Positions 36,137 through 60,077 of a stretch of DNA of 64,000 nucleotides are shown here, one piece after another. The notes under the pieces are model-generated. The model was given only the letters and a program-made list of their open reading frames with translations. It was not told where the DNA came from and did no database searches. The translations under genes and the position numbers were made by a program. Position 1 is the first letter of the stretch, and the number at the start of each line of letters is the position of its first letter. The stretch is from an uncultured bacterium (GTDB lineage: Bacteria; Hydrothermota; Tepidihabitantia; SM23-42). The stretch covers positions 1,231-65,230 of the forward strand of contig CBFDDH010000007.1 of the NCBI GenBank assembly GCA_965603515.1. The letters run 5' to 3'.

Positions 36137-38254
36137 ATGAAATACATCATAGTCATGACTGTTGTGGTCGCCAGCTTCATTTTTGCCGATAATCTCGTAA
36201 CCAACGGCGATTTTGAGCAGGAGCTGACCACCGGATGGTTAGAGTATTCTGGCGGGATTACTGATTCAATTACACGTGCCGCAACCTATGATCCTGACCC
36301 GGATTACGAGGCGTTCGTGTATCGCGCATCAGAGGGTGGTTACAGCAAATTATATCAGATAATTGATATCCCCTCTACGGATCTTGATTTCTCAGTGAAT
36401 GCGAAACTATATGCATATGATAATCACACCAGTGCGTGGACTGGCGCAAGCGTAATGATATCATATCTTAATAACAGTGGTTCTGTGTTGGGAGCTACCA
36501 GGATCTGTGCTCGCTCCACTCAGTGCCCATGGAATAATTCATCTACAATGCATATCATAGCGGCTGTTGACTCATTCTGGCACAACTACTCATTCAATAT
36601 CGAAACAGAACTCGCAAACCTCTCTGCTGTGAATCCGACAGATGTGAAGAAAATAGAAATAGCTCTGTTCGATTCAACTTATCATTGCTGAGGGGCGACA
36701 GAAACGGCAAAGGTCTTTGCCGATGATGTCGATCTTGATTTTACTGTAACGGGTGTATATCTTGCTTATCGCGATGATACAATAGATGATCAAAGTGGTA
36801 ACAATAATGGCGTGCTTGATCCGGGTGAAACGGCTGACATAAGTGTCCGTATCAAGAATTTTGGTGACCAGACCGCCACAAATGTATCAGGGACGCTCAG
36901 GACTTCATCTCCAGATATTACCATCAATGATGACTACGGTTACTGGGGGACAATTGCGCCAAGCGATAGCGTTGAGAATACAGCAAATCCATTCAATGTA
37001 ACAGCTAATGGCTCAAGCTCTGCTGGAACAGTTGTCGATTTTGAACTGGAAGTGACTGATACTGACAGATACACAGATACCCTGTACTTCAGTATCATCA
37101 TAGGTGGTGAAGGATTCGATTATGTTACCCATAACTGCGGTAATGTAAAACTCACGGTGACAAGGTATGGCACGTTTGGATACATGTCTGCTTTTGCACC
37201 CAATCCTGGAGACGGTTTCTGTTATCCCATAACAAGTAATAGCCACTTGTTCATAGGAACGTTCGCCGCCGGCAATAGTGCGGCGTACTGTGTTGACCGT
37301 TTCTTTAAAGGTGGTACAGATGACGACGACTGGCATACCACAGGTGTTCCTGACGGTATGGTAAGGATGTTTGAACCTGGTCCTGATGATTGGGATGAAT
37401 ATGCAACGGCACATTTTGATGACGCCGGACACGCTTCTCCACAGGATTTAGTAGTTGAACATCACTCCTGGGCATGGGATGATGCAAATGCAAATGATTT
37501 TGTAATTGTCAAATTCATATTACGTAATGAAGGGAGCACAACACTGAGTAATCTCTATGCGGCCACGTTCATGGATTGGGATGTCGGAACTGCAACAAGC
37601 AATCAGGGTTCATCTGATGCGGCGCGAAATTTAACCTGGCTATACCAAAATACACCGTATGTAGGCGTAGCTATCCTCGATCCGCCACGAACCACAACTG
37701 CGGCAAATCTTTCATTGGTTAGCCATAAAGACTATGTTTATCCGCTTAATGGCTTACCAGATAGCGTGATGATCCAGTTTATGGATGGAACAATTCAACA
37801 AGCGACCACAGATACTATTTATGATTGGTCAGCATGCAACTCATCAGGTCCATTTACACTTGCGCCTACAGACACATTTACTGCTGCCTTTGCAATCCTG
37901 GGCGGGGATAATCTCAGCGACCTTCAGGAAAATGCTGATACTGCTTACAATCGTTACTGGGGTAATATCGGAACCGAAGAGTGGAGTACTCCATCCCCTG
38001 CAAATATCAGTCTATATCCAGCGATCTCTCATGGTAAAGCCTACACAATTGTGTACAGCATGTCAGTTGAAACACCTGTACATGTGAAAGTGTATAATAC
38101 AGTTGGTCAACTATTAAAAGAACAGGACTTTGGTAGAATATCAGGTGCAGGCGAATTAAAACTGGATATCTCTCATTTTGCTCAGGGTGTGTACTTTGCT
38201 CAAATCGAATATGGGAATACGAAACAGACTTCAAAAATCATCTGGTTAAAATAA
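36137..38254 (+). CDS. Secreted jelly-roll/Ig-like protein with C-terminal sorting-type domain; one 705-aa ORF if TGA 36689-36691 is decoded (putative selenoprotein, motif HC-U-G)
   Basis: Track ORFs 36137..36691 and 36812..38254 share a frame; the 40 intervening codons are open; SECIS-like hairpin follows. Confidence 0.8.
36696..36731 (+). promoter_or_regulatory. SECIS-like stem-loop
   Basis: CGACA/TGTCG lower stem, CGGCAAA/TTTGCCG upper stem, GGTC loop 20 nt after TGA. Confidence 0.75.
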
Positions 38255-38276
38255 AAATTGATTAGGCGAATCATAT

Positions 38277-38308
38277 AGTGGGGGTGAATTATCACCCCCA
38301 CTTTTTTT
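38277..38308 (+). terminator. Intrinsic terminator
   Basis: AGTGGGGGTGA-ATTA-TCACCCCCACT followed by a T run. Confidence 0.85.
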
Positions 38309-38384
38309 GTACCACTTGCTCATTAAAAATAATAAACAGCTTCTATTCGTAAAAAAGGATACTAACGATTCTTCTCCTTTGTGA

Positions 38385-38801
38385 CTACTCACCGATTATC
38401 TTTACTAAAACCCGTTTGTCCCTCTTACCGTCAAATTCACCATAAAAGATCTGCTCCCAGGGGCCAAAGTCTAATTTGCCATCAGTCACCGCGACGACCA
38501 CTTCTCTCCCCATTAACTGTCTTTTTATATGGGCATCCGCATTGGTTTCACCGGTGAGGTTATGTGCATAGAGTTCTGGATTGTGCGGGATATTCTCTTC
38601 CAGCCATTTTTTATAATCTGCATGCAGTCCATTTTCATCGTCATTAATGAAAACGCTCGCCGTTATGTGCATTGCATTTACCAGACAAAAACCCTCTTTT
38701 ATCCCACTTTCTTTTAATGTTTTCTCAACCTTCGGAGTAATGTTTATAAACTCCATCCGGTTTTTTGTATGAAACCAAAGTTCTTTTTTAACACTCTTCA
38801 T
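38385..38801 (-). CDS. yjbQ: YjbQ/UPF0047 family protein
   Basis: [30 protein letters not shown]. Confidence 0.9.
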
Positions 38802-38825
38802 GTCTTGATCTCCTGCAACTAGATT

Positions 38826-39200
38826 CTATCTTCTCAAAAAAATATTACAGAACTGGATGATAAACCAAATAGCGACTGGTATGCCTAACATTAGAAACCA
38901 GAACAACCAGAGTTTCCTTCTGCGCCGGGGGTCTTTACTCTTAGTCCACTTGACATTTAACAACTCCTTATCTATTGGAAGGCTATCTACGATTATTTTT
39001 ACCTCATCAAGTTTTTCTTCCGGGGCGAAAACCACATACTCAACGCCTGGCCCGGCAACTGGAGTCACTGGAGAAAGCAGTATTCCGGTGATTGAACCCT
39101 GCTGCAAGTAGCAGGGTACATTATTCTTACGCAGCGTTTCGATCACCATCTCAGCAACATACGGCTGCTGATGTCTAAAAACCTCAATGAATTTACTCAT
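38826..39200 (-). CDS. Hypothetical membrane protein (DUF2007-like N-terminus, C-terminal TM)
   Basis: AEMVIETLRKNNVPC pattern plus one hydrophobic C-terminal helix. Confidence 0.55.
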   Translation of the reverse strand: MSKFIEVFRHQQPYVAEMVIETLRKNNVPCYLQQGSITGILLSPVTPVAGPGVEYVVFAPEEKLDEVKIIVDSLPIDKELLNVKWTKSKDPRRRRKLWLFWFLMLGIPVAIWFIIQFCNIFLRR

Positions 39201-39235
39201 ATCTTTTGAGCACTCTCCGGGATACCGTCACTCCT

Positions 39236-39916
39236 TCACTTGCTATTTTTTCTCTTGAACGACCAATAATTTCCAAAAAGATAACCGCACGTAAGAAAAA
39301 ACAAGTATAGCAAAAGTATGAGCGGCATCGATGGCATACGCATATATAATTCACTATCAGTGATACTATTGAGCAATGCGATGTATAAACAAAAAGGACC
39401 GATAAGCGCAAACAGAAACGCGAAAAAATTCTTGATATTGGTTAAACGAATGACTGATTTACTAGAATCTTTCTTACCAAAATTCCGCCAAAAAGAAAAG
39501 AATCCCTGTGCTCGGTCAGGCAATAAAGTCTCTCGCTGAATAAGATAATAGGCGAAAAATTCAAAACTTATAATTGCCAGCAGCACCTTACCTGTAAACC
39601 CGTACCACCGTGCCAAAGAAAGTCCCATCTTTTCAACAACAACACACCAGATAGGATTTGCTTCAAATGAGAGATCTGGGCATACTTTCAAAGTGCCAAA
39701 AAAATCAATAAGATGTGCCGCAAGTGATACACTGCCAACAATGAGCGAAGCCTGCCATTTACCGCGCAAAGAGTGTTTGCGAAGTACAAATATCATGGCG
39801 ATCGCCGCTAAGAACACCATAAACCATGCCAGTACAATCATAGGTAATCCAAATTGCGCAAAAAATTTCAGTACTTTCTCAAGGAAATCATAGGTCAAAT
39901 TATTTAAATCAACCAT
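39236..39916 (-). CDS. Hypothetical multi-pass membrane protein
   Basis: About five hydrophobic segments; EANP motif. Confidence 0.6.
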   Translation of the reverse strand: MVDLNNLTYDFLEKVLKFFAQFGLPMIVLAWFMVFLAAIAMIFVLRKHSLRGKWQASLIVGSVSLAAHLIDFFGTLKVCPDLSFEANPIWCVVVEKMGLSLARWYGFTGKVLLAIISFEFFAYYLIQRETLLPDRAQGFFSFWRNFGKKDSSKSVIRLTNIKNFFAFLFALIGPFCLYIALLNSITDSELYMRMPSMPLILLLYLFFLTCGYLFGNYWSFKRKNSK

Positions 39917-41187: not shown

Positions 41188-41267
41188 TCATTGAATCTGC
41201 TAATCCATAAATTTGCATGAAATAAGGGGAGCCATTATAGTTCCCCTTATAAGAAAAAGCGAGACCT

Positions 41268-42467
41268 TTACAGAATTATTAGTTTCTTTGTCATTGTTGT
41301 CGTATTTACTCTGAGTCTGACAAAATAAATACCTGAAGTAACGCGCCCCTTTTCCCAGACGTGTTCATGCATACCTACATCTTCAGATTGACTGACCACA
41401 ACATCAATCAGCCTGCCATCTGCAGAATAAATTTCTACACTAACCGGGGTGATTTCTGTCAGTGAATATCTTATGTGCACGATTTCTTTTGTCACATTAG
41501 GAGTAACCGCGAAGTTAGAGATTATAGTCTGCTCTGTTTCTTCCACACCCGGATTAAACGCGTTCTGGTAGTATCTAATATAGCCATCAAAATCACTCGT
41601 TAGGATATCGACCGCACCATCTCCATTGTAATCTATAAAGAAAGGTCTATTGGCTTGATTCCCACCAATGTAGGAACCGCCTGATACCTTTAATGTATCA
41701 CGAACATTGAATATTGGACTGGCATTTGTCCCGACATTCTTGTAGAAGTAAATGTATGTATATTGATCGCCCAAGATAAGATCTTTTAGCCCATCGCCAT
41801 CAAGATCGCAGATCCTCGGGGTAGCTCGATAATGATAGATCGGACTACCACCGCAGTTAATATAACTGAACGTAGTGAAGACAGGGTTCGCATTGGTGCC
41901 TTGGTTAAGATAAAGCCTAACTGTTCCCGTACCAGATTCTGATCCTATTATCAGATCTTTTTTACCATCTTCATTCCAGTCTACCACATCGGGATTAGCA
42001 TTGTTACCCACATCGATCTTTATACCATTTGCCCGCACTGTATCCAACAATGTTAAACCACGAGCTTCCTCTAGATACAACATGGTATAACCGTTTCTGT
42101 CACCGACAAGAATATCTCTTTGTCCATCTTCGTTCCAATCGCACACGGCGATCGCTGAGCCCTGACATCAGGACGCATAGACGGAAATGGGAGATCCGTC
42201 GGCCTGCAAATACTGAAATGAGATGTATGAAGGATCCTCATTTGTCCCGTAATTTTTATAGACACGGACATAGCCAGAAGAATACTGGCCTGTGACCAAA
42301 TCCTTTACATTATCACCATCCCAGTCATAGTAAAATGGAGAGCCGTACCAGGTTACATCGATTATACTCCCATTTGCCAATACATACTCGCCAGTTTCAA
42401 AAACCGGCGTCTGTGCGTGTACTGCAAAGAGAAAACCGATGATTAGTATTGCACATGCAAGTCTCAT
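41268..42467 (-). CDS. Secreted FG-GAP repeat protein with C-terminal sorting-type domain; one 399-aa ORF if TGA 42168-42170 is decoded (putative selenoprotein, motif AS-U-C)
   Basis: Two track ORFs in the same frame; sequence reads ISVYAS*CQGSAIAVCDWNEDG, placing the TGA inside an FG-GAP repeat; GGAGGAG RBS before ATG 42467. Confidence 0.8.
42136..42154 (-). promoter_or_regulatory. SECIS-like stem-loop
   Basis: CGATCGC-CGTGT-GCGATTG; loop 20 nt after TGA. Confidence 0.65.
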
Positions 42468-44352: not shown

Positions 44353-44369
44353 GTTTAAAAAACAAAACT

Positions 44370-46631
44370 CTATTTTACGAGTATCAGTTTTTCCAGGTAG
44401 TCTGTATTTTCAGTTTTGAGTTTGCAGAAATAGATACCAGCCGAGACTCTATTATCTTTCCCATCAAAACCATCCCATGAGATTTTGTGCGTTCCAGCCT
44501 GTTTGATATCATTAATGAGATTCTTAACCAATCTGCCCTGAATATCATAGATAGACAGTTCGACTGCTGTTTGTCTGGTCAATTGAAAATTCAGTACTGT
44601 CTGCCCTTTTGCCGGATTGGGTTTTGCGAAGAAAACAAACCTACCGATAGATTCTTCTTTGCTTTCTTCAGCGCCAACCAGAAGTGACCAACGGTATGTA
44701 CTACTACCATTTGTACCGGCAAAAATGTAGTTATTAGGATTAACATCAAGGCAATTGATATTCATTACGTCAAGCCCATCGTTCATCGACTCCCACGAAC
44801 TGCCATTATTCGTACTGCGGTACACGCCGTTGCTATAGGTTCCAGCATATATCATCGTGGCATCTGTAGATGTATTATCAATAAGGATTGTATTGGTTCG
44901 GCCACCGCTGAATCCAGTAGTCGCCCATGTCGATCCACTGTCTGTTGATTTATACAGGTTGATCGATGTTCCCGTATACATAATATTTGTATTGTCAGGA
45001 TCAACTACCAGGGCATAGACATAACCAGACAGACCAGTAGTCGGTAATTTTGTCCAGTTACTTCCACTATCAGTCGTTCGGTATATCGCTGAACCGCTTT
45101 CATAACCACCTGCGTACACGATATTCGAATTGCCAGGATCCATAGCCATGGCGTATAAATATCCAGTGCTCGAGCCAATCGTGTACCGCGTCCAACTGTC
45201 TCCTGTATTGGTAGTCTTTGAGACTGACATCTTATACAATGAATCACCGGGGTCGTAATAGCGTCCACCACACCAGAATATCGAATTGTTGCTGTGGTCA
45301 CAAATAAAATCTCCACCATCCGCATAGTAAAGGTCTTTGACGTTCCAGACGGACCCGCCGTCTGTGCTCAAGTAGAGCTCTGAATTGCCTCAGCCCGAGC
45401 CCTCAAAACCAAAAACAAGATCCGGGTCAGTATTGTGTACGCCAAAAGCACACAGCGCGCCGCAGGTTGAAGGCGTCGGCAGCAGGTCCCAGGCAGAACC
45501 GTTATCAGTTGTCTTATAGACACCAACATTTTCAAACTCTGTATACAAGGTTGCTGGTGATGACGGAGCAAGACCGATATCATTTATTTCTCCAAGGTAC
45601 ATTCCGTTTATCGCAGCAGCCCATGTCGTACCCATGGTTGTGGACTTGTAACATCCCGCGTTATTACCAACATACACATTTGAAGTACTAACCGGGCTGA
45701 TCGCTAAGCCCCAAAAGTAGCTACCATCAAGCCCTGAACTAAAAGAAGTCCAGGTAAGCCCAGCATCGGTGCTCCGGTACACTGAAGAATATGCAGTTGA
45801 AAACACAAGATCCGGATCGAGTGATGAGGTTGCCATACGGTAATTATAGAAGTATGTGGAAACCTTCGTCCATGAACCTCCATTGTCAGTCGAACGATAG
45901 ATACCATCAGTGTAAGTACCTGCGTACACGATATTCGAGTTGGTCGGATGAACGGCCATTGAATAAGTATAGTAGCCTGACGTAGCTGCCCAGGTAACAT
46001 CAGTGAAGTTCGAACCGCCGTCAGTTGATTTGAAAACTCTGGGATAGTATGTCGTAGTGACATACTCAGACCCGCCCACGAATATGGTATTCGGTGATGA
46101 CGGATCTATTGCCACACACCAGCCATAGCAATAACTGCCATTACTGAGAACAGTGGTCGTGGTCCATGTCGAACCGCTGTCTGTGCTCTTTATGAATACC
46201 ATATCGTAAACACCAGAGGCAATATATTTCCGACCTGCGCCCACGATAATAGATGGGTCAGCCGGATGCACGGCAAGACCATAAACATAGACGCTTGTTA
46301 CAGTCCCAGATGTCCACGTCGCACCATTGTCAGTCGATTTCCAGACGCGACCATAGTAACCTGAGTATAGATTATCCGATGGGTCAATAGCCATACAATA
46401 GTTGTAACCATTATATGAACCGGTCCTTGTCCATGAGGCACCGGCGTCGATTGATCTAAAAATCTTGCAGGGATACGAATACGAAGCGGCATAGAGAATA
46501 TTCTCATTACTCGGTGAAACCACGACTGAACGGATATTCCCACCTGCAGGTCCAATCGCTTCCCAAGCTCCATATGAGAGGGCACATAAACAAATGAGTG
46601 TTACTACAACTAATACTTTTTGCATAAGCAT
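44370..46631 (-). CDS. Secreted BNR/Asp-box beta-propeller protein with FlgD-Ig/sorting-type C-terminus; one 753-aa ORF if TGA 45390-45392 is decoded (putative selenoprotein, motif SG-U-G)
   Basis: Two track ORFs in the same frame; reads FGFEGSG*GNSELYLSTDGGSVW, so the TGA is inside a blade; many S-T-D-x-G-x-x-W repeats. Confidence 0.8.
45346..45364 (-). promoter_or_regulatory. SECIS-like stem-loop
   Basis: Perfect 7-bp CAGACGG-CGGGT-CCGTCTG; loop 32 nt after TGA. Confidence 0.7.
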
Positions 46632-48274: not shown

Positions 48275-49546
48275 ATGCTAATAGTGTTAATTTTTTTCAT
48301 GAACATAAGCCTTGGTGATACGCTCAACATCACCATTGAATATGCCATCGAATATGCTCTTGAGAACAACCCGGAGATAGTACAATCAACTCTGGATTTC
48401 AAGACCTCACAAGCGAAAGTTGATGAAGCGCGATCCGTGTTCTACCCCAATATATCAGCCAGTGGATATTATGCTTATCTGAGTGATGTCGCTGTCTTTG
48501 AGTTAGACAGCATGCTCATACCCATGGGACAGCATGAAAACTACAACTACCAGATCTCTCTACAACAGGTTCTTTTCACGTGGGGTAAGATATACAATGC
48601 ATATAGGATTGCTGGTCTTGGTAAAGATGTTGCGCAACTCAATATTATACGAAAGAAACAGGAAGTACGTAATTCAGTAACTGATGCATTTTATGGTCTT
48701 CTCGTACTAAAAGAAATGGTAACGCTCTCGCACGAAAGCTTGCTTCAACTTGAGAGACATGCAAACACAGTTGGAAAAAGGTATAAGGCTGGTCTGGTAC
48801 CTCAATTTGATTTGCTCCGCGCCCAGGTACAGGTGGCAAACCTTAAACCGCAATTGATCGAGGCCGAGAATGGCTTAAAACTGGCTCAGGAGGGGTTTAA
48901 AATGCTTCTGGGGTTACCCCTGCAACAGGAATTCAAACTCACCGGTGAACTGCAAATGGTCGATGAGGAATTCGATATCGATGACCTGATCACAACAGCA
49001 CTTGAAAATCGCATTGAATTGAAGAACCTTAACAAACTCACTGACATTGCAAAATACAGCAAGGCGATTGCGCGTCGCGCAAACCTGCCGACCTTAGTTG
49101 CAGGTGCAACGTATGTACGCACAAAGCCTTTCGGTTTTGGTGGAAATGATTGGGGGACAAATATCACCTTTAATGTCGGTTTTGAATTTCCCATATTCAC
49201 TGGTTTCAAGAATCTTGCTCAATACAAACAAGCAACCCTGCAACTGACAGGAGCAAGGCTTGCATTCGAGAATTTGGAAAAAGGCATTACGTTTGAAGTA
49301 AAACAGGCCTATTACAATCTCCAGGCCGCAAAACAATCCATTGCCGCAGCCCAGGATAATGTTACTCAGGCGGAAAAAACATACAAGATCATCGATATCA
49401 GATACCGCAATGGTTTGGCGACAAACCTGGAATTCATGGACGTTCAACTTGCTGCAATGCAAGCAAGAACAAATTATCTCTCGGCACTGAAGAATTACTA
49501 TACGGCAAAAGCCGAGATCAAAAAAGCAATTGGTAAGGAGGAATAG
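48275..49546 (+). CDS. TolC-family outer-membrane efflux protein
   Basis: ALENNP, FYPNIS, RYKAGL...DLLRAQ, RYRNGLATNLEFMDVQ. Confidence 0.93.
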   Translation: MLIVLIFFMNISLGDTLNITIEYAIEYALENNPEIVQSTLDFKTSQAKVDEARSVFYPNISASGYYAYLSDVAVFELDSMLIPMGQHENYNYQISLQQVLFTWGKIYNAYRIAGLGKDVAQLNIIRKKQEVRNSVTDAFYGLLVLKEMVTLSHESLLQLERHANTVGKRYKAGLVPQFDLLRAQVQVANLKPQLIEAENGLKLAQEGFKMLLGLPLQQEFKLTGELQMVDEEFDIDDLITTALENRIELKNLNKLTDIAKYSKAIARRANLPTLVAGATYVRTKPFGFGGNDWGTNITFNVGFEFPIFTGFKNLAQYKQATLQLTGARLAFENLEKGITFEVKQAYYNLQAAKQSIAAAQDNVTQAEKTYKIIDIRYRNGLATNLEFMDVQLAAMQARTNYLSALKNYYTAKAEIKKAIGKEE

Positions 49547-50431
49547 ATGCGCAAGTTCATAATTATTTCAGTTATAGTAATTGTCTTAGCTGTCGCCGTC
49601 ATAATCAGAGTCGGTGTTCTTAGGAAACCTACCGAACAGGAAGAAGCTGAGAAGATAGTCCCGGTTGAGATCTTTCCGGCACTGACCGGAAATGTACAAA
49701 GTACATGCGAGATCATCGGCACAATAAAGGCAAATAAAACTGCATATGTCTTCCCCGAGACAATGGGTCGAATCACACGTATCCTGGTTAAAGAAGGCAC
49801 TTACGTTAGCAAAGGCAGTAAACTCATGGCTCTGCGTAACGAGACAATAGGTTTTGAATACGAAGAAGGTTACATCACTGCCCCGATCAGCGGCAATATC
49901 GCGAATATCGTAGTCGACAATGGCTCGATGGTCACTCCGCAGTCGTCAGTAGCCATGGTCGTTGAATTTTCAAGGGTCAAGGTTTCCTTCAATGTATCTG
50001 AGAATGCAATGGATTGTATAAACAAAGGCGGCAAAGTTCGCGTTATGGTCGATGCCGCACCTGAGATTCAATTCAACGGCACAGTATCAGAGGTAAGCCC
50101 GATCATTGATCCGTTGACCCGAACTGTGGCCGCCAAGGCAGTCGTTAGTAATCCAAAAAAGATACTGAAACCAGGTATGACCGCTCGCGTAACACTGAAT
50201 TTAGGTTCCAAGGAAAATGTACTGGTGATACCACGCGACGCTTTGCTCGACGGTTATCTATTCATCGTCAAGGACAGTACATCAGAACGCCGCGATGTCA
50301 TTGTTGGTTTAATCGGTGATGAATTCGTGGAGATCCTCGATGGGATAGAAGAAGGCGAGCAGGTCGTGGTAGTCGGACAGCAAAGACTCGCCGGTGGAGA
50401 GAAGATCAATCCGATTCCAAGGAGTGAATAA
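49547..50431 (+). CDS. RND efflux periplasmic adaptor (MFP)
   Basis: ITAPISG, LKPGMTARV, VEILDGIEEGEQVVV. Confidence 0.9.
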   Translation: MRKFIIISVIVIVLAVAVIIRVGVLRKPTEQEEAEKIVPVEIFPALTGNVQSTCEIIGTIKANKTAYVFPETMGRITRILVKEGTYVSKGSKLMALRNETIGFEYEEGYITAPISGNIANIVVDNGSMVTPQSSVAMVVEFSRVKVSFNVSENAMDCINKGGKVRVMVDAAPEIQFNGTVSEVSPIIDPLTRTVAAKAVVSNPKKILKPGMTARVTLNLGSKENVLVIPRDALLDGYLFIVKDSTSERRDVIVGLIGDEFVEILDGIEEGEQVVVVGQQRLAGGEKINPIPRSE

Positions 50432-53400
50432 TGAACCTTACTGAGATATCGATAAAAAGACCTCTTACCGTGCTAATGGTTTTTCTCGGCGTTATACTCT
50501 TCGGCTTTATCTCGGTCACTAACCTGCCGGTCAACCTTTTCCCGGATGTCACCTTTCCCATGATGTTCATTATGACAAGTTATCCCGGTGCAGGTCCGGA
50601 AGAAATAGAAACGCAGATAACTGACCCGCTTGAAAAAAGCCTCGGTACGGTGAATAACCTCGATAAAATGACATCAACGACATCAGAGAACCTTTCTCTG
50701 ATCTTTATGCAATTCGATTGGGGAGCAGATATCGACGCGGCATCAAATGACGTACGCGATGTATTGGGCTTTATAACCCCGTATTTGCCGGAAGACGCAG
50801 ACTACCCGCTCATCTTTAAATTCGATATTTCACAACAACCGGTTGTCATGTATACGGTAGGCGGTGATATCAACCCGCTTGAGCTGGATGAGATCGCTGA
50901 GGGTGTTGCAGATCAGCTCCAGCGTGTGGGCGGTGTTGCCGCATCGTATGCTATGAGCGAAGCCATGAAAGAAGTACAGATAGTACTCGACCCGCTCAGA
51001 CTGAAAGGAACCGGGATAACTTCGGAACAAATCATCAATGCGCTTCGGGCCCAGAACATTAATTATCCACTCGGTAATATAGAAACCGGGAACAAAATTT
51101 ATATCGCAAGAACGATCGGTGAATATGACAACCTCGAGGAGATCAGAAATACGGTTGTTGGTAGTAACAACGGCATACCGATACTGCTCTCCCAGATCGC
51201 TGATGTCCGTTCATCACCATCTGAACAGACCTCTGTCTCGCGAACCAATGGCGTTCGTTCATTATGGGGTTTTGTACAGAAGCGAACTGATGCCAATACG
51301 GTGACGGTCGCGACCGCGGTCGTTAAAGAACTTGAAAAAATAAAAGAAGACCTGCCGCCAGGTGTCCAGGTCGACCTTATTTTTGACCAGGCAGACTTTA
51401 TCAACCGTTCTGTACGCAGTACTGCAGAAACCCTGATCTTCGGTGCGATCCTCGCTATTGTCGTCCTATTTCTTTTCCTTGGCAGTTTCCGCTCAACCCT
51501 GTATATGGCAGTCGCAATACCCATCACCGTCTTTTTCTCTCTCTTTTTCATGTATCTCTCCAATCTCAGTCTCAATATCATCTCACTTGGTGGTCTAACG
51601 ATCGCAATAGGTATGGTCCTCGATTCAGCGATCGTTGTCTTTGAGGCAATATTCCGCCACAAAGAAAAAGGAGAAGATGCCAAAAAAGCTGCGTGCGCTG
51701 GCGCTGAAGAAGTAACCGCCGCGATCACGGCATCGACCATGACCACGGTCGCGGTCTTTTTACCGCTCCTTTTGGTCAGCGGTCTAGCTTCGGTATTCTT
51801 TAAGCCATTAGCACTTACCGTTACCTTTGCTCTTGTCTCGTCTCTTTTAGTGGCCTTAACGATCATCCCGATGCTTTCGGTGCGCTTCAAAACCATGAAA
51901 CGCCGGGCATTTGGTCAACGACTGGCAAATTTCTATGTGCGCGTTGAAAATGTATACACGCGTATCATTAAGTGGGCACTGCAACATAGATTGATGGTAA
52001 TACTCGTCACCCTTGGTGTCTTCGTTGTCAGTCTGGGAGGTCTGGTACCTTTGATAGGCACCGAGTTAACTCCCCAGGTAGACCAGGGCGAGATCATTAT
52101 CAACGCTGAAATGCCAGTCGGTACAAATATGTGGGTAACTGATTCGGCAGTCAAAAAACTTGAAAAGATCGTCGCCGAGGAAGTACCTGAGATCGACATC
52201 ATGTCGACATCAATAGGTGCTGGTTCCGGTGGTATGATGAGTCTATTCATGTCCACCGCGGGTCCTCACTCTGCTCAAATATGGATCGAACTTCCTCATC
52301 GTGAAAAACGTGCGCGTTCAGTCTTCGATATTCAGCGTGACCTGCGACCCAAGATAGAGAATATCATTCCAGGATTAAAAGTAACATACGGTCAGGATGA
52401 TTTCTCCATGTTCGGCGGAGGCGCCGCTATCGAGATCAAAATTTTCGGATATAGCCGCGAAAAAGCAAAGAATATATCTGATGAATTAATAGATACGCTT
52501 CAAACCATTGAAGGACTCGTTGGTCTTGAATCGAGCTTTGGCGAAGGAAAACCAGAATACCAACTGCTCATTGACCGCCGCAAAGCCGCGAACTTTGGAC
52601 TCACACCTTATCAGATCGGCAGCGTCCTGCGTTCACGTCTGGAAGGCACGGTAGCCAGTCAATTCCGAGAACAAGGTAATGAGTATGACATTAAGCTCAT
52701 GATCGACAAAAAATACAGGAATGACCTTAAGAAAGTGATATCGATGACGATAACGACCCCGGTCGGCGAGGTACCATTACAAAATTTTATCAAGGACACA
52801 ATCGCAATAGGACCTGTTTCAATTGACCATGAGGATAATAAACGTATTGTTACGATCACCGGCAGTGTTGAAGGACGCGATATGGGCAGCGTTGCAGCCG
52901 AAGTTCAGAAGATAGTCGATGAAATGCAAAAACCCGCCGATTTCATCGTTGAGATGGGCGGCGGTTATGAAGAACAGATGAACACGTTCAGGGATCTTGG
53001 TTTTGTTATATTACTCGCGCTTGCACTTGTTTACATGATCATGGTCGGGCAGTTTGAATCGTTCAAAGAACCTTTCATTATCATGTTCACAATTCCGCTT
53101 GCTCTCATCGGTGTCGTATGGATGCTCTTTTTTACCGGCACGACGATCAATATGCAAAGCCTGATGGGTGTACTATTGCTCGGCGGTATCGTGGTCAACA
53201 ATGCGATCGTTTATATTACCTATACTAATCAGCTGCGCCGCGAGCAAGGTATGTCGCTTTTTGATTCTGTAGTCGAGGCCGGAAGAGTCCGTCTTAGACC
53301 TATCCTTATGACCGCACTGACCACCAGCTTTGGGTTGATCCCCATGGCACTCGGTATCGGAGCTGGCAGTGAGATGCGTGCGCCCATGGCAAGATCAGTC

Positions 53401-53514
53401 ATCGGTGGATTGTTAATTTCAACATTCCTGACCCTCGTGTTCATCCCCGTAATATACACGCTTTTCGAGCGGAAGAAAAGACCGAAGGAAAACCTGAGAA
53501 AGCAAAGATCATAA
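50431..53514 (+). CDS. RND efflux permease (AcrB/AcrD/AcrF family)
   Basis: SIKRP, GMVLDSAIVVFE, GIVVNNAI, RLRPILMTALTT. Confidence 0.95.
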   Translation: MNLTEISIKRPLTVLMVFLGVILFGFISVTNLPVNLFPDVTFPMMFIMTSYPGAGPEEIETQITDPLEKSLGTVNNLDKMTSTTSENLSLIFMQFDWGADIDAASNDVRDVLGFITPYLPEDADYPLIFKFDISQQPVVMYTVGGDINPLELDEIAEGVADQLQRVGGVAASYAMSEAMKEVQIVLDPLRLKGTGITSEQIINALRAQNINYPLGNIETGNKIYIARTIGEYDNLEEIRNTVVGSNNGIPILLSQIADVRSSPSEQTSVSRTNGVRSLWGFVQKRTDANTVTVATAVVKELEKIKEDLPPGVQVDLIFDQADFINRSVRSTAETLIFGAILAIVVLFLFLGSFRSTLYMAVAIPITVFFSLFFMYLSNLSLNIISLGGLTIAIGMVLDSAIVVFEAIFRHKEKGEDAKKAACAGAEEVTAAITASTMTTVAVFLPLLLVSGLASVFFKPLALTVTFALVSSLLVALTIIPMLSVRFKTMKRRAFGQRLANFYVRVENVYTRIIKWALQHRLMVILVTLGVFVVSLGGLVPLIGTELTPQVDQGEIIINAEMPVGTNMWVTDSAVKKLEKIVAEEVPEIDIMSTSIGAGSGGMMSLFMSTAGPHSAQIWIELPHREKRARSVFDIQRDLRPKIENIIPGLKVTYGQDDFSMFGGGAAIEIKIFGYSREKAKNISDELIDTLQTIEGLVGLESSFGEGKPEYQLLIDRRKAANFGLTPYQIGSVLRSRLEGTVASQFREQGNEYDIKLMIDKKYRNDLKKVISMTITTPVGEVPLQNFIKDTIAIGPVSIDHEDNKRIVTITGSVEGRDMGSVAAEVQKIVDEMQKPADFIVEMGGGYEEQMNTFRDLGFVILLALALVYMIMVGQFESFKEPFIIMFTIPLALIGVVWMLFFTGTTINMQSLMGVLLLGGIVVNNAIVYITYTNQLRREQGMSLFDSVVEAGRVRLRPILMTALTTSFGLIPMALGIGAGSEMRAPMARSVIGGLLISTFLTLVFIPVIYTLFERKKRPKENLRKQRS

Positions 53515-53546
53515 AAGAGCAGAAACCAAAAGATAAAGTCCATAAA

Positions 53547-53573
53547 AAAAGGTCGGGCCCCGCCCGACCTTTT
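53547..53573. terminator. Bidirectional intrinsic terminator
   Basis: AAAAGGTCGGGC-CCC-GCCCGACCTTTT. Confidence 0.85.
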
Positions 53574-53671
53574 CATTCAAAAACAGATCATGTTATCTCA
53601 ACCTCAGAGGATAAGATGATAGTACGGCTAAATCTTACATATCTATAACAAAAAAAGCATGCTGCTTTTCA

Positions 53672-55546
53672 TTACTGAGAGCTATCAGCTGCGGTAAGCG
53701 CAGCTTTGAAATATAAAGCACCTATTCTTTTTTCCCCTATCCTAACACTGAATCCACCCTCATAATAACCATCTTTCTGCCTAACTACGCTTTCGTCATT
53801 TTCAAGGATGTCACCGAGAAATTCACGACCTAAAAACGCATAATCGCTCGAGGCAACTATGACACCATGTCCATCAGTAAAATGCACCAATGATATATCA
53901 GTTACCGCAGCACGTAATTCGCTAATGATCTCTTCAAGCGTGCCTATCTCGTCCATTACCAGCACGTCTTCAACATATGAAGAGTGAGCAATGACCTTAC
54001 CGATACTTTTATACCTTTCAGCACGTAACTCATTCTGGGATCGTGCTTGTTCTTGTTCACTCGTTAGCGCACCAAAATACAGTGCACCGAATTTTTTCTC
54101 TTCGAGTTCGATACTGAAAGCGCACTCATAGAACCGGTCGCGCTGCCGGACTGCATAAGTATCTGGATCAAGGATCTTTGAATTGTACACCGCGCCCATT
54201 GTCCCTGGATCGCTCGAGGCGATCACGGTATTTTGGTCATCAGTAAAATGAACATACGTGATATCTGGTTCATCTTGTCTGAGTTGGTCGATAATCTCAC
54301 TCAATTTTGCCTCGTTACACAAAACGAAAGCATTTTTAACATATGATGAGCCAACGATCAGATTGCCAATCATAGAATACTTACGGGCTGGTGATTCAAT
54401 CGCTATTTGATCATCGGTTGGAGTGCTGACACCGGGGAGTAGAGATTTAATTCGTTCTTTGTGGCGCGGATAGTGAATGGTGAAGTAGTATAACAAAGCC
54501 AGGATCGCGCACGTGATAAACACACCCAAACCGGTATAAAAAATAGCCTGCAGCTTTTTCGTTTTCTTTTTGCCAGTCGTTTTCCCTTCTGGTTTCTGGC
54601 TGAGCTTTGCCTGTTTTGTATCATGAACAGGTTGCGCTTTAATGTTGGCCGGCGGTTCAGGCACATCATCAACGATGTTCATCTTCAGAATATGCGATAT
54701 TTCCCGGCAGCTCTGTGGTCGCTGATGAGGATCTTTAGACAAACACCTCAGGATGAGATGATCCCAGACTTCCGTAATATGCGGGTTTATATCCCCGGGC
54801 GATGGAGGTATTTCCTCCTCTTGCTTGCGCATTATTTCGTAATCAGTGTCACCCTGAAAAGGTACTTGTCCGGTAAGAGCTTCGTAGATAGTTATACCGA
54901 GTGAATAGATATCACTCGGCGTATCGAGTTCCTTACCTCTCACCTGCTCGGGTGACATGTATTTTGGCGTCCCAACAGCAGTCCCGGTCCTCGTAATTTT
55001 TTGATCGCCGACCATCTGGGCGATACCGAAATCAACGAGTTTAGCAATAGATTTTTTAGAAAACATAATATTCGAAGGCTTAATATCACGGTGCACGATG
55101 GAGTGGTCATGAGCAAAACCCAGACCCGACAAAAGCCCCCCAAGAACCGGTGAAAAACTATCGATATCAAAAGCGCCGAATTTCTTGATGTGCTGGGCAA
55201 GCGTCCGGATCTTTTCATCATTAACGCCGATACCTTCGATATATTCCATGACGAAAATATACATACCATTATCTTCAAAAAAATTGTGGATAGTGACGAT
55301 ATTTGGATGGCCGGTCAGTTGCGCGGTCGCCTGTGCTTCGCGCAGAAACCGCTCACAGAACTGAGGGTCAGAAGTAAGCGCCGGTTTCATTATTTTAATG
55401 GCAACAACCTGGTTTATCAAAGTGTGGCGTGCCTTGTAAACGGTCGCCATGCCACCGCTCCCGATCTTACCAATGATCTCGTATTCACGAATCCGTTCAC
55501 CGGGAGCAGGTGTCAATGACGGCAGGGTACTGTCATCATAGTACAT
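53672..55546 (-). CDS. Hanks-type Ser/Thr kinase, one TM, two tandem extracytoplasmic repeats
   Basis: GSGGMATV, VAIK, HRDIKPSN, DFG, GTPKYMSPE, SDIYSLG; two ~105-aa C-terminal repeats. Confidence 0.92.
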   Translation of the reverse strand: MYYDDSTLPSLTPAPGERIREYEIIGKIGSGGMATVYKARHTLINQVVAIKIMKPALTSDPQFCERFLREAQATAQLTGHPNIVTIHNFFEDNGMYIFVMEYIEGIGVNDEKIRTLAQHIKKFGAFDIDSFSPVLGGLLSGLGFAHDHSIVHRDIKPSNIMFSKKSIAKLVDFGIAQMVGDQKITRTGTAVGTPKYMSPEQVRGKELDTPSDIYSLGITIYEALTGQVPFQGDTDYEIMRKQEEEIPPSPGDINPHITEVWDHLILRCLSKDPHQRPQSCREISHILKMNIVDDVPEPPANIKAQPVHDTKQAKLSQKPEGKTTGKKKTKKLQAIFYTGLGVFITCAILALLYYFTIHYPRHKERIKSLLPGVSTPTDDQIAIESPARKYSMIGNLIVGSSYVKNAFVLCNEAKLSEIIDQLRQDEPDITYVHFTDDQNTVIASSDPGTMGAVYNSKILDPDTYAVRQRDRFYECAFSIELEEKKFGALYFGALTSEQEQARSQNELRAERYKSIGKVIAHSSYVEDVLVMDEIGTLEEIISELRAAVTDISLVHFTDGHGVIVASSDYAFLGREFLGDILENDESVVRQKDGYYEGGFSVRIGEKRIGALYFKAALTAADSSQ

Positions 55547-55733
55547 GGCCAATTATAGCAAAATCAATAAACTTGTAAAGATAATATTAAATTGGTCGGG
55601 AATGCTAAGTCTCATAAAAACAAACAGGAATTAAACAAATAGCTCAATTTTTCAGTACACCGTACCAGGTAAAACACCCATGTTTTCTTGACATTGCTGA
55701 GCAGATTACTATACTGTAATAGGAGGTTTTATC

Positions 55734-56735
55734 ATGCGCAAAATATCGTGTATTTTATTGGCTTTGAATGTAATAATCATTAGCATGAGCGGCTGTAAGG
55801 GTGAAAAGGCTACTTTTGTAACGATCGGCACCGGCGGTGTAACCGGTCTCTACTATCCGACCGGTGGTGCACTGAGCCGTATGCTCAATAAACGGGTCAA
55901 AGAATTCAAAATAAAAGCGACCGTCGAATCAACGAGTGGGTCTGTATTCAATATCAATGCCGTACTAACCGGTGATATGGAATTCGGCATCGCCCAGTCT
56001 GACCGGCAGTACCAAGCTTATGAAGGTATGGCTGAATGGTCGAAAGCCGGTCCCCAGATCAGTTTGCGATCGATCTTTGCCATTCACCCCGAACCCATAA
56101 CTCTTGTTGTATCAGAAGATAGCAAGATCGAAACGATCGAAGATCTGAAGGAAAAAAGGATAAATATGGGGAATCCAGGGTCAGGTCAATTGCAGAATTC
56201 AAAAGACGTTTTGTTGGCGGCCAATTTGGATGAAAATGATATATCGACAGAATATGTAAAAGCAGTAGAAGCACCGGGTTTACTCCAGGACGAAAGGCTC
56301 GATGGTTTCTTCTATACTGTGGGGCATCCTAATGGAAATATAAAAGAGGCAACCTCTGGTCGCATTAAAGTCCGCATCATACCGATCACGGGCAAGACCA
56401 GAGATAAGATGTTGGCGAAATATTCATACTATGCAAAGGCGATGATACCTTATTCATTCTATCCCCGCGCTTTGAATAATGAAAATATTCAAACGATCGG
56501 TGTTAAGGCAACTTTTATTACATCAAAGAACGTAAGTGAAGACATTGTTTATGCGATCACTAAAGTTGTCTTTGAAAACTTCGAAGAATTTAAAACCCTT
56601 CATCCAGCATATGAGGTACTAACTAAAGAAAGTATGCTCCAGGGTCTCTCTGCACCACTACATAAAGGAGCTCTGAAATATTACCGGGAAGCCGGTCTCG
56701 ACAAGTACATCGATCCAGCACTGATAATCGACTAG
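55734..56735 (+). CDS. TAXI-family TRAP transporter solute-binding protein
   Basis: IGTGGVTGLYYPTGG, STSGSVFNI, PLHKGALKYYRE. Confidence 0.93.
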   Translation: MRKISCILLALNVIIISMSGCKGEKATFVTIGTGGVTGLYYPTGGALSRMLNKRVKEFKIKATVESTSGSVFNINAVLTGDMEFGIAQSDRQYQAYEGMAEWSKAGPQISLRSIFAIHPEPITLVVSEDSKIETIEDLKEKRINMGNPGSGQLQNSKDVLLAANLDENDISTEYVKAVEAPGLLQDERLDGFFYTVGHPNGNIKEATSGRIKVRIIPITGKTRDKMLAKYSYYAKAMIPYSFYPRALNNENIQTIGVKATFITSKNVSEDIVYAITKVVFENFEEFKTLHPAYEVLTKESMLQGLSAPLHKGALKYYREAGLDKYIDPALIID

Positions 56736-58742
56736 TTGATGGGGGCAATCGGCAGCACAAGGGATAAGCGACGCCTTGACAGAATTATCATAGGTGCTGT
56801 TTCTGTCAGCTGGGCGCTGTTCCAGCTTGCCCTACCCCGTTTTATTATACTCGACAGTATCACGGTCAGGGCGATACACCTTTGCTTTGCTATCAGCCTG
56901 GTCTTTCTGAACCTACCTTTTGCCAAACGGCTGCGCTCATTCAAGTTTTTCAATACAAAGTCTCATATTCCGCTGCTCGATTTTATTCTTGCTGGTGTAG
57001 CATGTCTCGCCGTGTTGTATATAGTATTTGATTGGACCGGGATATCAATGCGCGCCGGCATCCCAAACACACGTGATATCATAATGAGTATAATCCTGAT
57101 TCTTGTCGTGTTTGAGGCTTCACGACGGGTCATTGGCCTGCCTCTGGTCATCATCGCTGTCCTATTCACGCTGTATGCTTTCCTGGCACCTCACATGCCT
57201 AGTTTGTTTGCATTGCGCGGCGTATCCCTGGAAAAATATTTGAGTCAGGTTGCACTGTCAACCGAAGGCATCTATGGCATACCTTTGGACGTTTCAGCAA
57301 ATACGGTTTTTCTATTTGTTTTGCTTGGCGCCATGCTCGAACGAGCTGGTGCGGTTCATTTTTTCAACGACCTTGCGATATCACTGCTTGGCAAATTCAA
57401 AGGTGGTCCAGCTAAAGCTGCGGTCGTAGCAAGTGGACTTACCGGACTTGTTTCAGGATCAAGCATCGCCAATGTTGTCACAACCGGAACTTTTACCATA
57501 CCCTTGATGAAAAAAGTTGGTTATCCTGGAAAGATCGCTGCGGCGACTGAAGTTGCGGCGAGTACAAACGGACAGCTCATGCCGCCAATCATGGGTGCGG
57601 CCGCATTCATTATTGCCGAGTATCTAAGCATACCATACCTTGATGTTGTAAAAGCCGCTGCAATACCTGCCTTTGTTTCCTATTTCGCCCTCTTCTACAT
57701 CACACATCTGGAAGCATCAAAACTCGGCATGCGAGGACTCGACAAGGTAGACATCCCAAGGTTCTGGCAAGTCATGAAAAGAGGTTTCTATTACCTAATC
57801 CCCCTTTTCATGCTGATTTACGAGTTGATGGTTATCCGCCACACGCCAAAATTAGCTGCGTTCAACGCGATCATCGTGCTCATGGTCATCATCGTGTTGC
57901 GTGAAATAATCGCTTCGCTCAAACATGGAACCGGGATTGTACAACCCCTATTCAATAGTCTTAAATTGATCGGTCGCGGTCTTATCTCAGGTTCTCGCAA
58001 TATGCTATCGGTTGCACTGGCAACTGCTTGTGCCGGCATTGTCGTAGGTATTGTCACCATGGGTATCGGCAGCATGATCGTTCAAATCGTTGAGATTCTA
58101 TCGGCTGGTAACATCTTCCTTCTATTATTAATTACCGCGATCGCAAGTTTAATAATCGGTATGGGCTTACCAACAACTGCTACCTATATTGTCATGGCAT
58201 CAATAACTGTCCCTATCATTATCACTCTGAGCGCGCGCAGCGGCATCAGCTATATCCCGGCCATTGCAGCTCATCTGTTTTGTTTCTACTTCGGTATCCT
58301 CGCTGACGACACACCACCAGTCGGCCTTGCTGCTTATAGCGCCGCAGCAATTGCCAAGTCTAACCCCATAGCAACTGGCGTGAAAGGATTTATGTATGAT
58401 CTAAGGACTGCGGTTATCCCATTTATGTTTGTCTTTAACACAGAACTTATTCTCTTTGGCATTCATAACCTCGCTCAAGCACTGCTCATATTTACCATGG
58501 CCGTATTCGGCGCATTTGCTTTTTCAAATGCAGTCCAGGGCTGGTTCATAATCAAGAACGAGTGGTATGAATTCCCCTTATTCCTTATTGCATCGGTCAT
58601 CTTCTTTTTTCCTGCAATCGTGACCAAGCTCTTCAATCTTGACCATAGCCTGCGTTACTACATGTATTTTTTTGGCTTTGCAGTATATGCATTCGCGTAT
58701 CTAATCCAGAAAATTCGAAGTCGAAAAAAGATTCGTCGTTAA
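56736..58742 (+). CDS. TRAP transporter fused 4TM/12TM permease
   Basis: SGSSIANV, EVAASTNGQLMPPIMGAAAF, GMGLPTTA, DDTPPVGLAA. Confidence 0.93.
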   Translation: MMGAIGSTRDKRRLDRIIIGAVSVSWALFQLALPRFIILDSITVRAIHLCFAISLVFLNLPFAKRLRSFKFFNTKSHIPLLDFILAGVACLAVLYIVFDWTGISMRAGIPNTRDIIMSIILILVVFEASRRVIGLPLVIIAVLFTLYAFLAPHMPSLFALRGVSLEKYLSQVALSTEGIYGIPLDVSANTVFLFVLLGAMLERAGAVHFFNDLAISLLGKFKGGPAKAAVVASGLTGLVSGSSIANVVTTGTFTIPLMKKVGYPGKIAAATEVAASTNGQLMPPIMGAAAFIIAEYLSIPYLDVVKAAAIPAFVSYFALFYITHLEASKLGMRGLDKVDIPRFWQVMKRGFYYLIPLFMLIYELMVIRHTPKLAAFNAIIVLMVIIVLREIIASLKHGTGIVQPLFNSLKLIGRGLISGSRNMLSVALATACAGIVVGIVTMGIGSMIVQIVEILSAGNIFLLLLITAIASLIIGMGLPTTATYIVMASITVPIIITLSARSGISYIPAIAAHLFCFYFGILADDTPPVGLAAYSAAAIAKSNPIATGVKGFMYDLRTAVIPFMFVFNTELILFGIHNLAQALLIFTMAVFGAFAFSNAVQGWFIIKNEWYEFPLFLIASVIFFFPAIVTKLFNLDHSLRYYMYFFGFAVYAFAYLIQKIRSRKKIRR

Positions 58743-58784
58743 ATCAATGATTAACTGGTCTTCGTGTTGGCAAAGTCTCGGAGA

Positions 58785-60077
58785 CTAACGAACTTTGACT
58801 ATCTTTTGCATTATTTTGCCGTCTATCTCAATAAAATAAATGCCGGGCTGTACGTGCAAAACATCGATCTGTCGCCCGGTGATATCGTAGACATCACACT
58901 TCTTACCGGCAGGTAAGTACAACGGTCCGCTGATTATTGTAGCATGGAAGAATTCGTTATCTTGCCAAAAACCTGGTGTCTGTTCTACACCGAGTTGAAT
59001 ATCCAAATTACCAAATATATCATAGTTACCCCCGCAGAATTGTTGCCAGGCCACCAAAGACTCAGCATTACCGATCGCCAAAGACGGGAAATCGCGGGTG
59101 CAACTTACTGTATCTGAAATCCGGAAGTTGCTGCCAACAAGTTCCCCTGACATTGATACGCGCTGGCCAAAAATGGCGCAGTCCTGGCTCCACACCACAA
59201 GATAAAAACTATCACCAGCGCAGACGCGTGCTCCGTATTGATAGGGAGAATCATCTGCAATGGCGATAGCAGCGCCGATCAGATCGCCATCTACTGAAAC
59301 GAGCTGTCCATACACATCATCATCATAGTATGGTGACGGCTCGTTCCAAACAACCAGATAACTACTATCACCAAAAGCAATATCCGGGTCTAATAGGGCA
59401 TCCTCTGACAATACTCTGATGACAAACTCATGATCTTCAGGCTGACATTCAGAGTTTATGAATCGACCGAAAAGACCAGCTGGGTTATGGTTATAGTTAT
59501 ACCAAACCGCAAAATACCGCTCACCATCAAAAGCTACGGCTGGTCGGTATTCACAATAAGCCCCCATGCCAAAAACCACACCAGAATCAAGAACTGCGCC
59601 GTCAGGGGTCACACGCGCTGCCTGAACCTTGTATTCACCGCCAAAAGTACCGTCTGACCAGACTACCAGGTAATTATCACCACCAAAAACGATATCTGGT
59701 TCGCGCGAGACTTCGCTATCAGCTTTCACAAGTATCGTGTTTAGCATCTGAAGCTCTGGAGTGACCCGCACCCCGATTATATTTCCGATATTTCAACAAC
59801 CGTAGCGGAAAACAAATAGAAGGTTCTGTCCATCATAGGCAGTACGGATACCGTATGTTGAATACCCTTGATAAAAGAATACGCCGGTCGAGTCAATCAC
59901 CGTGCCGTCTGGTTTCACGCGTGCACCATAAATTGACATTGACTGCCGGAAATCTGACCAGAACACATAATATAAACTGTCAACAAAGATAACACTTGGC
60001 TGAAATTGAGATTCCGAGTGTCCACATATAGTGAAATCAGCATTTATAAAAACTAAACATAAGCTAAGTAGAAACAT
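58785..60077 (-). CDS. Secreted beta-propeller-like repeat protein with C-terminal sorting-type domain; one 430-aa ORF if TGA 59793-59795 is decoded (putative selenoprotein, motif GC-U-N)
   Basis: Two track ORFs in the same frame; reads FRYGC*NIGNIIGVRVTPE; the repeat unit YLVVW..I.G.RV..DG occurs on both sides; the only signal peptide is upstream of the TGA. Confidence 0.8.
59758..59774 (-). promoter_or_regulatory. SECIS-like stem-loop
   Basis: GGGGTG-CGGGT-CACTCC (one G-U pair); loop 24 nt after TGA and identical to the loop at 45353-45357. Confidence 0.62.

Follow-up and report, generated by a model that had tools for sequence, protein, structure and literature searches.

Candidate selenoprotein genes among predicted type IX secretion cargo of a WOR-3-related bacterium

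Four genes divided by an in-frame TGA

The 64-kb window analysed here, by which we mean the whole stretch of contig CBFDDH010000007.1 presented above, carries four genes, called A to D, in which a single TGA codon separates two open reading frames (ORFs) that share the same frame. We evaluate these as candidate selenoprotein genes, in which the internal UGA would be read as selenocysteine (Sec, written U in protein sequences). Gene A occupies positions 36137–38254 of the forward strand, with its TGA at 36689–36691 in the protein context HC*G (HC-U-G if recoded). The other three reside on the reverse strand: gene B at 41268–42467 (TGA 42170–42168; AS*C, or AS-U-CQG), gene C at 44370–46631 (TGA 45392–45390; SG*G, or GSG-U-G) and gene D at 58785–60077 (TGA 59795–59793; GC*N, or GC-U-N). 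Translation across the loci reveals one internal stop in each gene, always TGA. Moreover, a six-frame scan of the window for two long same-frame ORFs with a single stop between them returned these four genes along with ordinary adjacent gene pairs, and nothing else. Thus, the four in-frame TGAs and contexts reported in an initial annotation of this DNA are upheld.

The two halves of each gene carry complementary export features. A hydrophobic N-terminal signal is present in A, B, C and D exclusively 5′ of the TGA, and a sorting domain (Por_Secre_tail, PF18962/TIGR04183) scores above the Pfam and NCBIfam cut-offs exclusively 3′ of the TGA in A, B and C. Gene D has no Pfam or NCBIfam match, and its C-terminal end aligns with paralogues that bear the sorting domain. 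The arrangement originally described, with the signal upstream and the sorting end downstream, is therefore established by domain models for three genes and by paralogue alignment, without a Pfam match, for the fourth. If the UGA is read through, each gene would encode a signal peptide and a sorting domain in one polypeptide, which is the architecture of type A cargo of the type IX secretion system (T9SS).

Internal TGA codons are confined to this class of genes within the window. Three more T9SS cargo genes with a sorting domain are present, all of them intact, such that four of the seven cargo genes have an internal TGA compared with none of about 38 other genes, as the initial annotation had also noted. 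We considered and rejected a genome-wide reassignment of UGA (genetic code 4 or 25), because TGA is the terminal stop of 12 of the 42 other ORFs in the window and occurs internally in only the four genes.

The nearest protein matches of the window belong to candidate division WOR-3, and scanning family D against the species genomes of GTDB yields metagenome-assembled genomes (MAGs) of Candidatus Stahlbacteria. One such locus, L004 (JAUWGT010000002.1, Ca. Stahlbacteria CSMAG_2249), is syntenic with window positions 48344–63868 at 87–94% nucleotide identity. Public sequencing runs containing the window derive from marine-sediment, sediment, cold-seep, subsurface and seawater metagenomes. Independent Logan contigs from four metagenome runs span the stretch that holds the B and C TGAs, and in one run (X1) the two contigs covering these codons are identical to the window, with zero differences.

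Conservation of the TGA and of both flanks

Counting the window together with its related loci, an in-frame stop occurs at the homologous column 81 times (A 4, B 61, C 6, D 10), and it is TGA in every case and never TAA or TAG. The relatives included are as little as about 30% identical. A metagenome scan with family B recovered 80 related loci, at least 50 of which have their Sec column occupied by an in-frame stop, giving 61 sites when second copies and the window are included. All 61 are TGA, with Cys as the next residue in nearly all (G-U-CQG, S-U-CQG or G-U-CMG). In family D, each of nine full-length orthologues found in GTDB genomes (45–95% identity) keeps a TGA directly after Cys; the D orthologues with TGA include those on two closed WOR-3 chromosomes, CP070686.1 and CP070834.1. 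Family C has six sites in a G-U-G context (the window, L001, L004, L071 and two in L074), and family A has four sites in the same column, each after Cys (the window, L001 and two in L002).

Database entries hold many further examples in split form. The best 120 database matches to D are mostly C-terminal ORFs of about 320–331 amino acids that start just past the TGA, which we take as a sign that these genes are divided as in the window. The 184-amino-acid N-terminal ORF of A, used in an exhaustive search, returned 183 representatives at E values up to 0.001; among the best 150 of these, 100 are 150–210 amino acids in length, and these end in Cys in 66 cases and in Gly in 22. In total, split representatives number about 100 each for families A and D, and are seen at more than 50 loci for B.

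Both sides of the TGA have few nonsynonymous differences (pN 0.07–0.35) relative to synonymous differences (pS 0.43–0.90), with synonymous sites near saturation. Low pN and high pS extend over the first 40 codons past the TGA, where no start codon is conserved. This pattern indicates that purifying selection acts on each gene on either side of the TGA, and it agrees with the earlier expectation that the TGA would occupy homologous columns between conserved flanks.

Single internal stops are the commonest sign of gene decay or of sequencing and assembly errors, and the four genes could in principle be pseudogenes or artefacts. However, dozens of independent assemblies and the two closed chromosomes share the same TGA, and the codon and both gene halves are conserved where synonymous sites are saturated. 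Because the TGA recurs across assemblies and both halves are under selection, we exclude decay and assembly error, to which we assign a negligible probability.

A second explanation is that the genes are truly split, wherein UGA terminates translation and the N-terminal fragment is secreted alone, with the downstream ORF translated separately, or wherein termination is regulatory. The gene callers of every database do annotate two ORFs, and alternative start codons lie a few to 41 codons past the TGA. Yet constraint is as strong on the codons that separate the TGA from the earliest available start as on the remainder, and the downstream parts lack a signal peptide while carrying a sorting domain that works only after export. 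Truncation would also break the protein fold, because the TGA interrupts a repeat unit in D and the region of propeller repeats in B and C. Furthermore, a plain stop would be expected to drift among TAA, TAG and TGA, which none of the 81 sites did. We therefore regard two separate products as very improbable.

Hairpins downstream of the TGA codons

A small hairpin with a G-containing loop is predicted to form 3′ of each internal TGA. In gene A, a 7-bp core stem with a GGUC loop (36705–36722, forward strand) is extended by an outer stem to about 36691–36736. The reverse-strand hairpins of B (42136–42154) and C (45346–45364) have 7-bp stems that close the loops CGUGU and CGGGU, respectively, and that of D (59758–59774, reverse strand) has a 6-bp stem with the loop CGGGU. 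The loops of A, B, C and D start 23, 23, 35 and 27 nt, respectively, from the U of UGA.

To provide a background, a loose rule with the same criteria was applied to all 2873 TGA trinucleotides of the window. Hairpins by this rule follow four of four in-frame TGAs compared with 3.2% of the window TGAs and 1 of 12 terminal TGA stops. Because the background is 3.2%, the occurrence of all four hairpins is far beyond chance. Folding energy is significant for only two of the genes, A (minimum free energy −18.1 kcal/mol, z = −3.3) and C (z = −2.3), with z values of +1.1 for B and +0.05 for D, and so the case for the hairpins rests on sequence comparison.

This comparison reveals extensive maintenance of pairing. 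For A, 96% of cells are paired across four sequences, the GGUC loop does not vary and there are two compensatory pairs, at positions read as synonymous sites. For the first group of B sequences (29 distinct sequences), 97.5% of cells are paired, whereas controls with slid partners give 17–37%. One pair in this group covaries (AU 14, GC 11, GU 4, unpaired 0); on our reading, the opening position of a codon for Ile or Val is matched here with the third, synonymous position of a codon for Asp. A second group of 18 B sequences forms the hairpin in a shifted register with 88% pairing, including one pair (AU 12, GC 6) that reads as a synonymous Pro third base matched with a Val/Ala second base. All cells are paired across ten sequences of D, with one compensatory change from A-U to C-G (in L009).

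The hairpin of family C is evident in a different manner. Of the six genes, several have it at this location in their RNAfold predictions, with clear cases in the window and L071, and the remaining hairpins were paired by eye in shifted registers, so that they are recorded as present without a formal pair count. Also, paralogue contigs in four sediment metagenomes match the window at 45343–45406 only, a segment that holds the C TGA and its hairpin, and diverge on both sides. This restricted match points to nucleotide-level conservation of a recoding signal among C paralogues.

These structures resemble the bacterial selenocysteine insertion sequence (SECIS), in that each is an evolutionarily maintained stem-loop with a G in the loop within about 16–37 nt, and they represent predicted SelB sites. 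A hairpin of this kind after each TGA had been proposed from the outset and is borne out here by loop starts at 23–35 nt and by compensatory changes in A, B and D, many of which read as synonymous third-base substitutions.

The sole terminal TGA followed by a SECIS-like hairpin is the stop of the CTP synthase gene (14535–14537, reverse strand). The 26 open codons past this TGA overlap the start of the next gene, and we judged the hairpin to be a chance occurrence. A recent review names a selenoprotein related to the C-terminal region of CTP synthase (PMC13188914).

Protein folds and the location of the proposed selenocysteine

The product of gene A would consist of a signal peptide, a 184-amino-acid jelly roll similar to carbohydrate-binding modules (CBMs) that ends in Cys184, the proposed Sec185, a domain of about 450 amino acids and a T9SS sorting domain. 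The N-terminal domain is modelled as a jelly roll with high confidence (pLDDT 93.8), and its Foldseek matches include CBM16, CBM11 and the sugar-binding domain of Fbs1 (TM about 0.45). In this model of the N-terminal domain alone, Cys184 and the proposed Sec185 sit directly past the last jelly-roll strand. The roughly 450-amino-acid domain is common to S8 and C25 peptidases of WOR-3. Another conserved Cys of family A is Cys130.

Genes B and C would each encode a propeller protein between the signal peptide and the T9SS sorting domain. Gene B has an FG-GAP beta-propeller with Sec100 followed by Cys101, and gene C has BNR/sortilin-type beta-propellers with Sec414 in a Gly-rich insertion. In both proteins, the Sec loop resembles inserted sequence that the remaining repeats do not have. 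Family C additionally has a conserved Cys in an SCG motif about 24 residues before Sec.

Gene D would encode a short signal peptide, repeats of about 52 amino acids, the pair Cys94-Sec95 and a C-terminal end resembling a sorting domain; a further conserved Cys in this family is Cys18. A long D paralogue (P0204) is modelled as beta-propellers, and this protein has a Cys-Cys pair at residues 222–223, between model strands 213–221 and 224–232. In one repeat register, this pair occupies the turn that aligns with the Sec site of D. Overall, the folds originally assigned to the four proteins are roughly right: a CBM-like jelly roll for A, an FG-GAP propeller for B, a BNR/sortilin propeller for C and, for D, a repeat family with a paralogue modelled as a propeller.

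Homologues that lack the TGA either are missing the short loop or have Gly-Cys, Ala, Asp or Pro in a loop that aligns poorly. Neither Trp nor Arg, which the initial annotation named as contrary outcomes, was seen at these columns, nor was any other refuting outcome that it listed observed. The Cys counterparts that might replace Sec were found only in part, as the Cys-Cys pair of the D paralogue, with no clean Cys counterpart in B, A or C. For family C, none of the homologues compared has a Cys counterpart at the Sec column, and full-length A relatives without TGA have other Cys residues near the column, sometimes as C-x4-C.

Selenocysteine machinery and the probable decoding of the UGA

To locate genes for selenocysteine insertion, 1.2 Mb of related-locus DNA was scanned with ARAGORN and with Escherichia coli SelD, SelA and EF-Tu as tblastn probes. 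The tblastn matches are limited to two Thermoanaerobaculia loci and L074, with none in the Stahlbacteria/WOR-3 flanks.

Two contigs carry a gene for tRNA-Sec with a UCA anticodon close to homologous TGA genes. On L074, a partial selD precedes tRNA-Sec (839–933; found by ARAGORN, and 69 bits to Rfam RF01852), which is followed in turn by three TGA genes, the first and third of them C-like and the middle one B-like. On L071, C-like and B-like TGA genes follow tRNA-Sec (999–1097; RF01852, 66 bits) at a distance of about 3.5 kb. Because the TGA genes are physically linked to selC in these contigs, and in L074 to selD as well, homologues of the window genes occur in Sec-decoding genomes.

Relatives of the L074 selD adjoin selA and selB. 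Among five neighbourhoods of SelD relatives, selA-selB-selD clusters are present in L120 and L124, and the order of selD, tRNA-Sec and selenoprotein genes seen in L074 is not repeated. An apparent split BNR gene in L124 was rejected as two genes in different frames. The selD gene of L120 has its own in-frame TGA at 9989–9991, with the same placement in L121 and L123, in the context KCAG-U-ASK and with a hairpin about 20 nt downstream, which we take to be the known UxxK Sec site. Database entries for SelD of this type are truncated ORFs only, of about 329 amino acids.

Several observations weigh against the reading of A to D as selenoprotein genes. The 64-kb window and about 200 kb of flanking DNA from Stahlbacteria/WOR-3 loci yielded no selA, selB, selC or selD. 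The L071 and L074 proteins are only 36–46% identical to those of the window, and the named matches of the L074 SelD are Caldithrix, Bacteroidetes and ‘bacterium’, with Caldithrix sp. as the nearest named, such that these two contigs may represent another lineage of the FCB group. The classical test, in which Sec is matched to Cys in homologues, gives a weak result, with Cys-Cys in the D paralogue and B and A counterparts that lack Cys at the exact column: B relatives without TGA have Gly-Cys (L082 and L083) or no loop of 4–5 residues, and A relatives without TGA (P0400, P0416 and P0414) carry Ala, Asp or Pro. In addition, the B and D hairpins have no stability advantage over shuffled sequence (z = +1.1 and +0.05), and conserved amino acids account for part of their conservation.

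Some of these points are also expected if UGA is read through without a selenocysteine system, wherein a suppressor or near-cognate tRNA, stimulated by the hairpin, inserts Trp, Cys or Gly. The lack of machinery genes in the DNA searched and the scarcity of Cys counterparts at the exact column are consistent with this mechanism, and Gly would be tolerable in the Gly-rich contexts (G-U-G in C, and the 22 of 100 short A representatives that end in Gly). However, a dedicated system is favoured by the two contigs on which a tRNA-Sec gene adjoins homologous TGA genes, with selD also present on one of them, and by the fit of the hairpin geometry and G-containing loops to the bacterial SECIS rule of 16–37 nt. 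The exclusive use of TGA (81 of 81) and the recurrence of a neighbouring Cys, as in the known CU and UC selenoproteins of the review (PMC13188914), also argue against such suppression, which we consider improbable although less so than either of the explanations dismissed above.

Given this evidence, we consider A to D to be genuine selenoprotein genes, with an internal UGA read as selenocysteine, at a probability of roughly 0.88. The initial suggestion of Sec in secreted proteins outside the classical families is thus supported by TGA conservation, selection on both sides of the codon, covarying hairpins and linkage to tRNA-Sec and selD.

Genomic neighbourhood

TGA genes of these families tend to lie near one another, as in the window, L001, L004, L071 and L074. 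Members of the same family are also duplicated on single contigs about 0.9–4 kb apart (L002 at 2956 and 5162, L048 at 10250 and 11752, L079 at 9394 and 10289, and L074 at 2519 and 6516), suggestive of local expansion. The content of selenoprotein genes differs among close relatives: L004 has an extra C-family TGA gene at 11990–13800, where the window (55734–58742) has TRAP transporter genes.

A UPF0047 gene is located between A and B in the window (38385–38801, reverse strand) and beyond the C-like and B-like TGA genes in L071 (7693–8394, reverse strand), and may be a conserved neighbour of the B and C selenoprotein genes. At L033 3884–4939 and L034 647–1693, both in Thermoanaerobaculia MAGs, selD lies less than 10 kb from distant D-like propeller repeat proteins, which may be a coincidence. 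Elsewhere in the window (2605–7418, reverse strand), a DEAD/DEAH helicase gene is followed by two BrxC/BrxD-like ATPase genes (PF10923) that may be part of a BREX-related defence island.

Proposed mechanism

If this assignment is correct, each internal UGA would be decoded by Sec-tRNA(Sec) delivered by SelB, which in turn would be recruited by the small SECIS hairpin that resides inside the coding sequence 23–35 nt 3′ of the UGA. The full-length products would then cross the inner membrane through the general secretory translocon, and the T9SS would place them on the cell surface or release them from it.

The selenocysteine would lie in a short Gly- and Cys-rich loop of each protein: in A, within the linker past the last jelly-roll strand; in B and C, within an insertion in one propeller repeat; and in D, within a loop that models as the hairpin turn of a propeller blade in the paralogue P0204. 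A Cys would adjoin Sec as C-U in A and D and as U-C in B, and in C the Sec would follow the conserved SCG Cys by about 24 residues. An exposed selenol/thiol or selenenylsulfide pair of this kind could serve as a redox-active site, as a ligand site for thiophilic metals or sulfur, or as a cross-link, at the cell surface in sulfidic, anoxic sediment. Insertion of Sec in this organism, the export of the proteins and their chemical role are all predictions of this model.

A broader proposal, which we advance tentatively and at somewhat less than even odds, is that these proteins are not selenoproteins by coincidence. As binding proteins exported by the T9SS, three built on propellers and one on a lectin-like jelly roll, each with an exposed Sec or Sec-Cys site, they would form a coherent extracellular selenoproteome with a shared surface chemistry that Cys would be unable to support in sulfidic sediment. 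The genes would be inherited as neighbours, in some lineages beside selD and tRNA-Sec. Such sites might, for example, capture thiophilic metals, exchange selenenylsulfides with polysulfide or sulfur, or form covalent tethers.

Relationship to known selenoproteins and T9SS cargo

The proposed recoding mechanism is the standard bacterial one. As in SelB- and SECIS-dependent genes such as fdhF, selD and the families of Table 1 in the review (PMC13188914), A to D have a single in-frame UGA and a hairpin in the coding sequence with a G-containing loop at about 16–37 nt, with tRNA-Sec and selD on related contigs and UGA otherwise a normal stop. They differ from those genes in encoding jelly-roll, FG-GAP, BNR/sortilin and new-repeat propeller folds with a T9SS sorting domain. 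In most known families, unlike in A to D, the fold is thioredoxin-like or of another redox type, and Cys homologues are clear. A 2026 compilation of 119 prokaryotic selenoprotein families (PMC13188914) includes neither the folds of A to D nor any T9SS cargo, and no selenoprotein model in NCBIfam matches the four proteins. Full-text literature searches found no report of Sec in T9SS cargo and nothing of relevance on selenoproteins of WOR-3/Stahlbacteria, of the FG-GAP type or among secreted bacterial proteins; a groundwater MAG survey is cited for novel candidates of unspecified kind (Deng et al. 2026, cited in PMC13188914). What would be new, then, is a set of four widespread families, often gene neighbours, with an unusual destination.

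The vicinal Cys-Sec pair of A and D and the Sec-Cys pair of B, which occur in Gly-flanked and presumably exposed segments, have parallels elsewhere. Thioredoxin reductase has the C-terminal motif GCUG. In known CU and UC cases, the pair forms a selenenylsulfide or binds metals. Selenoproteins with such motifs in the review table are SaoL, HgcA, MbdU and the KCU-star family (PMC13188914). The proteins described here have no sequence or fold kinship with these, and their pairs would be located in the loops of extracellular binding-type domains rather than at a flexible C terminus or in the product of a metal-handling operon.

The export of Sec-containing proteins would not be unprecedented, because extracytoplasmic selenoproteins are known, including an FCYXU-type TonB-dependent receptor, DUF1573 (UGC), a UshA-like protein, the outer-membrane protein GSU2204 and the multiheme MccSep (PMC13510729). 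As in that set, Sec in A to D would be outside the cytoplasm, and the UGC that the review (PMC13188914) gives for DUF1573 resembles the UC of family B. None of those proteins is listed as T9SS cargo or has the folds of A to D, whereas the four genes here lie together in one 24-kb stretch and recur as neighbours elsewhere. When compared with T9SS type A cargo of the FCB group, A to D are typical in their signal peptide, sorting domain and repertoire of FG-GAP, BNR, CBM-like and C25/S8 C-terminal domains, and they differ in the proposed selenocysteine.

The great majority of bacterial selenoproteins known so far are redox enzymes that act inside the cell or in the periplasm, and most of them have thioredoxin-like folds. 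The four families would extend the prokaryotic selenoproteome to new folds and to a new compartment, the cell exterior reached through the T9SS, and would provide new natural SECIS variants in conserved coding contexts. Gene models in many MAGs would be corrected, where members of these families are systematically misannotated as pairs of hypothetical ORFs. The findings also raise the chemical question of what an exposed Sec-Cys pair offers over a Cys-Cys pair in sulfidic sediment. For WOR-3/Stahlbacteria and related sediment lineages, they would imply a previously unrecorded requirement for selenium and, if the coherent extracellular selenoproteome is real, a novel extracellular role for selenocysteine.

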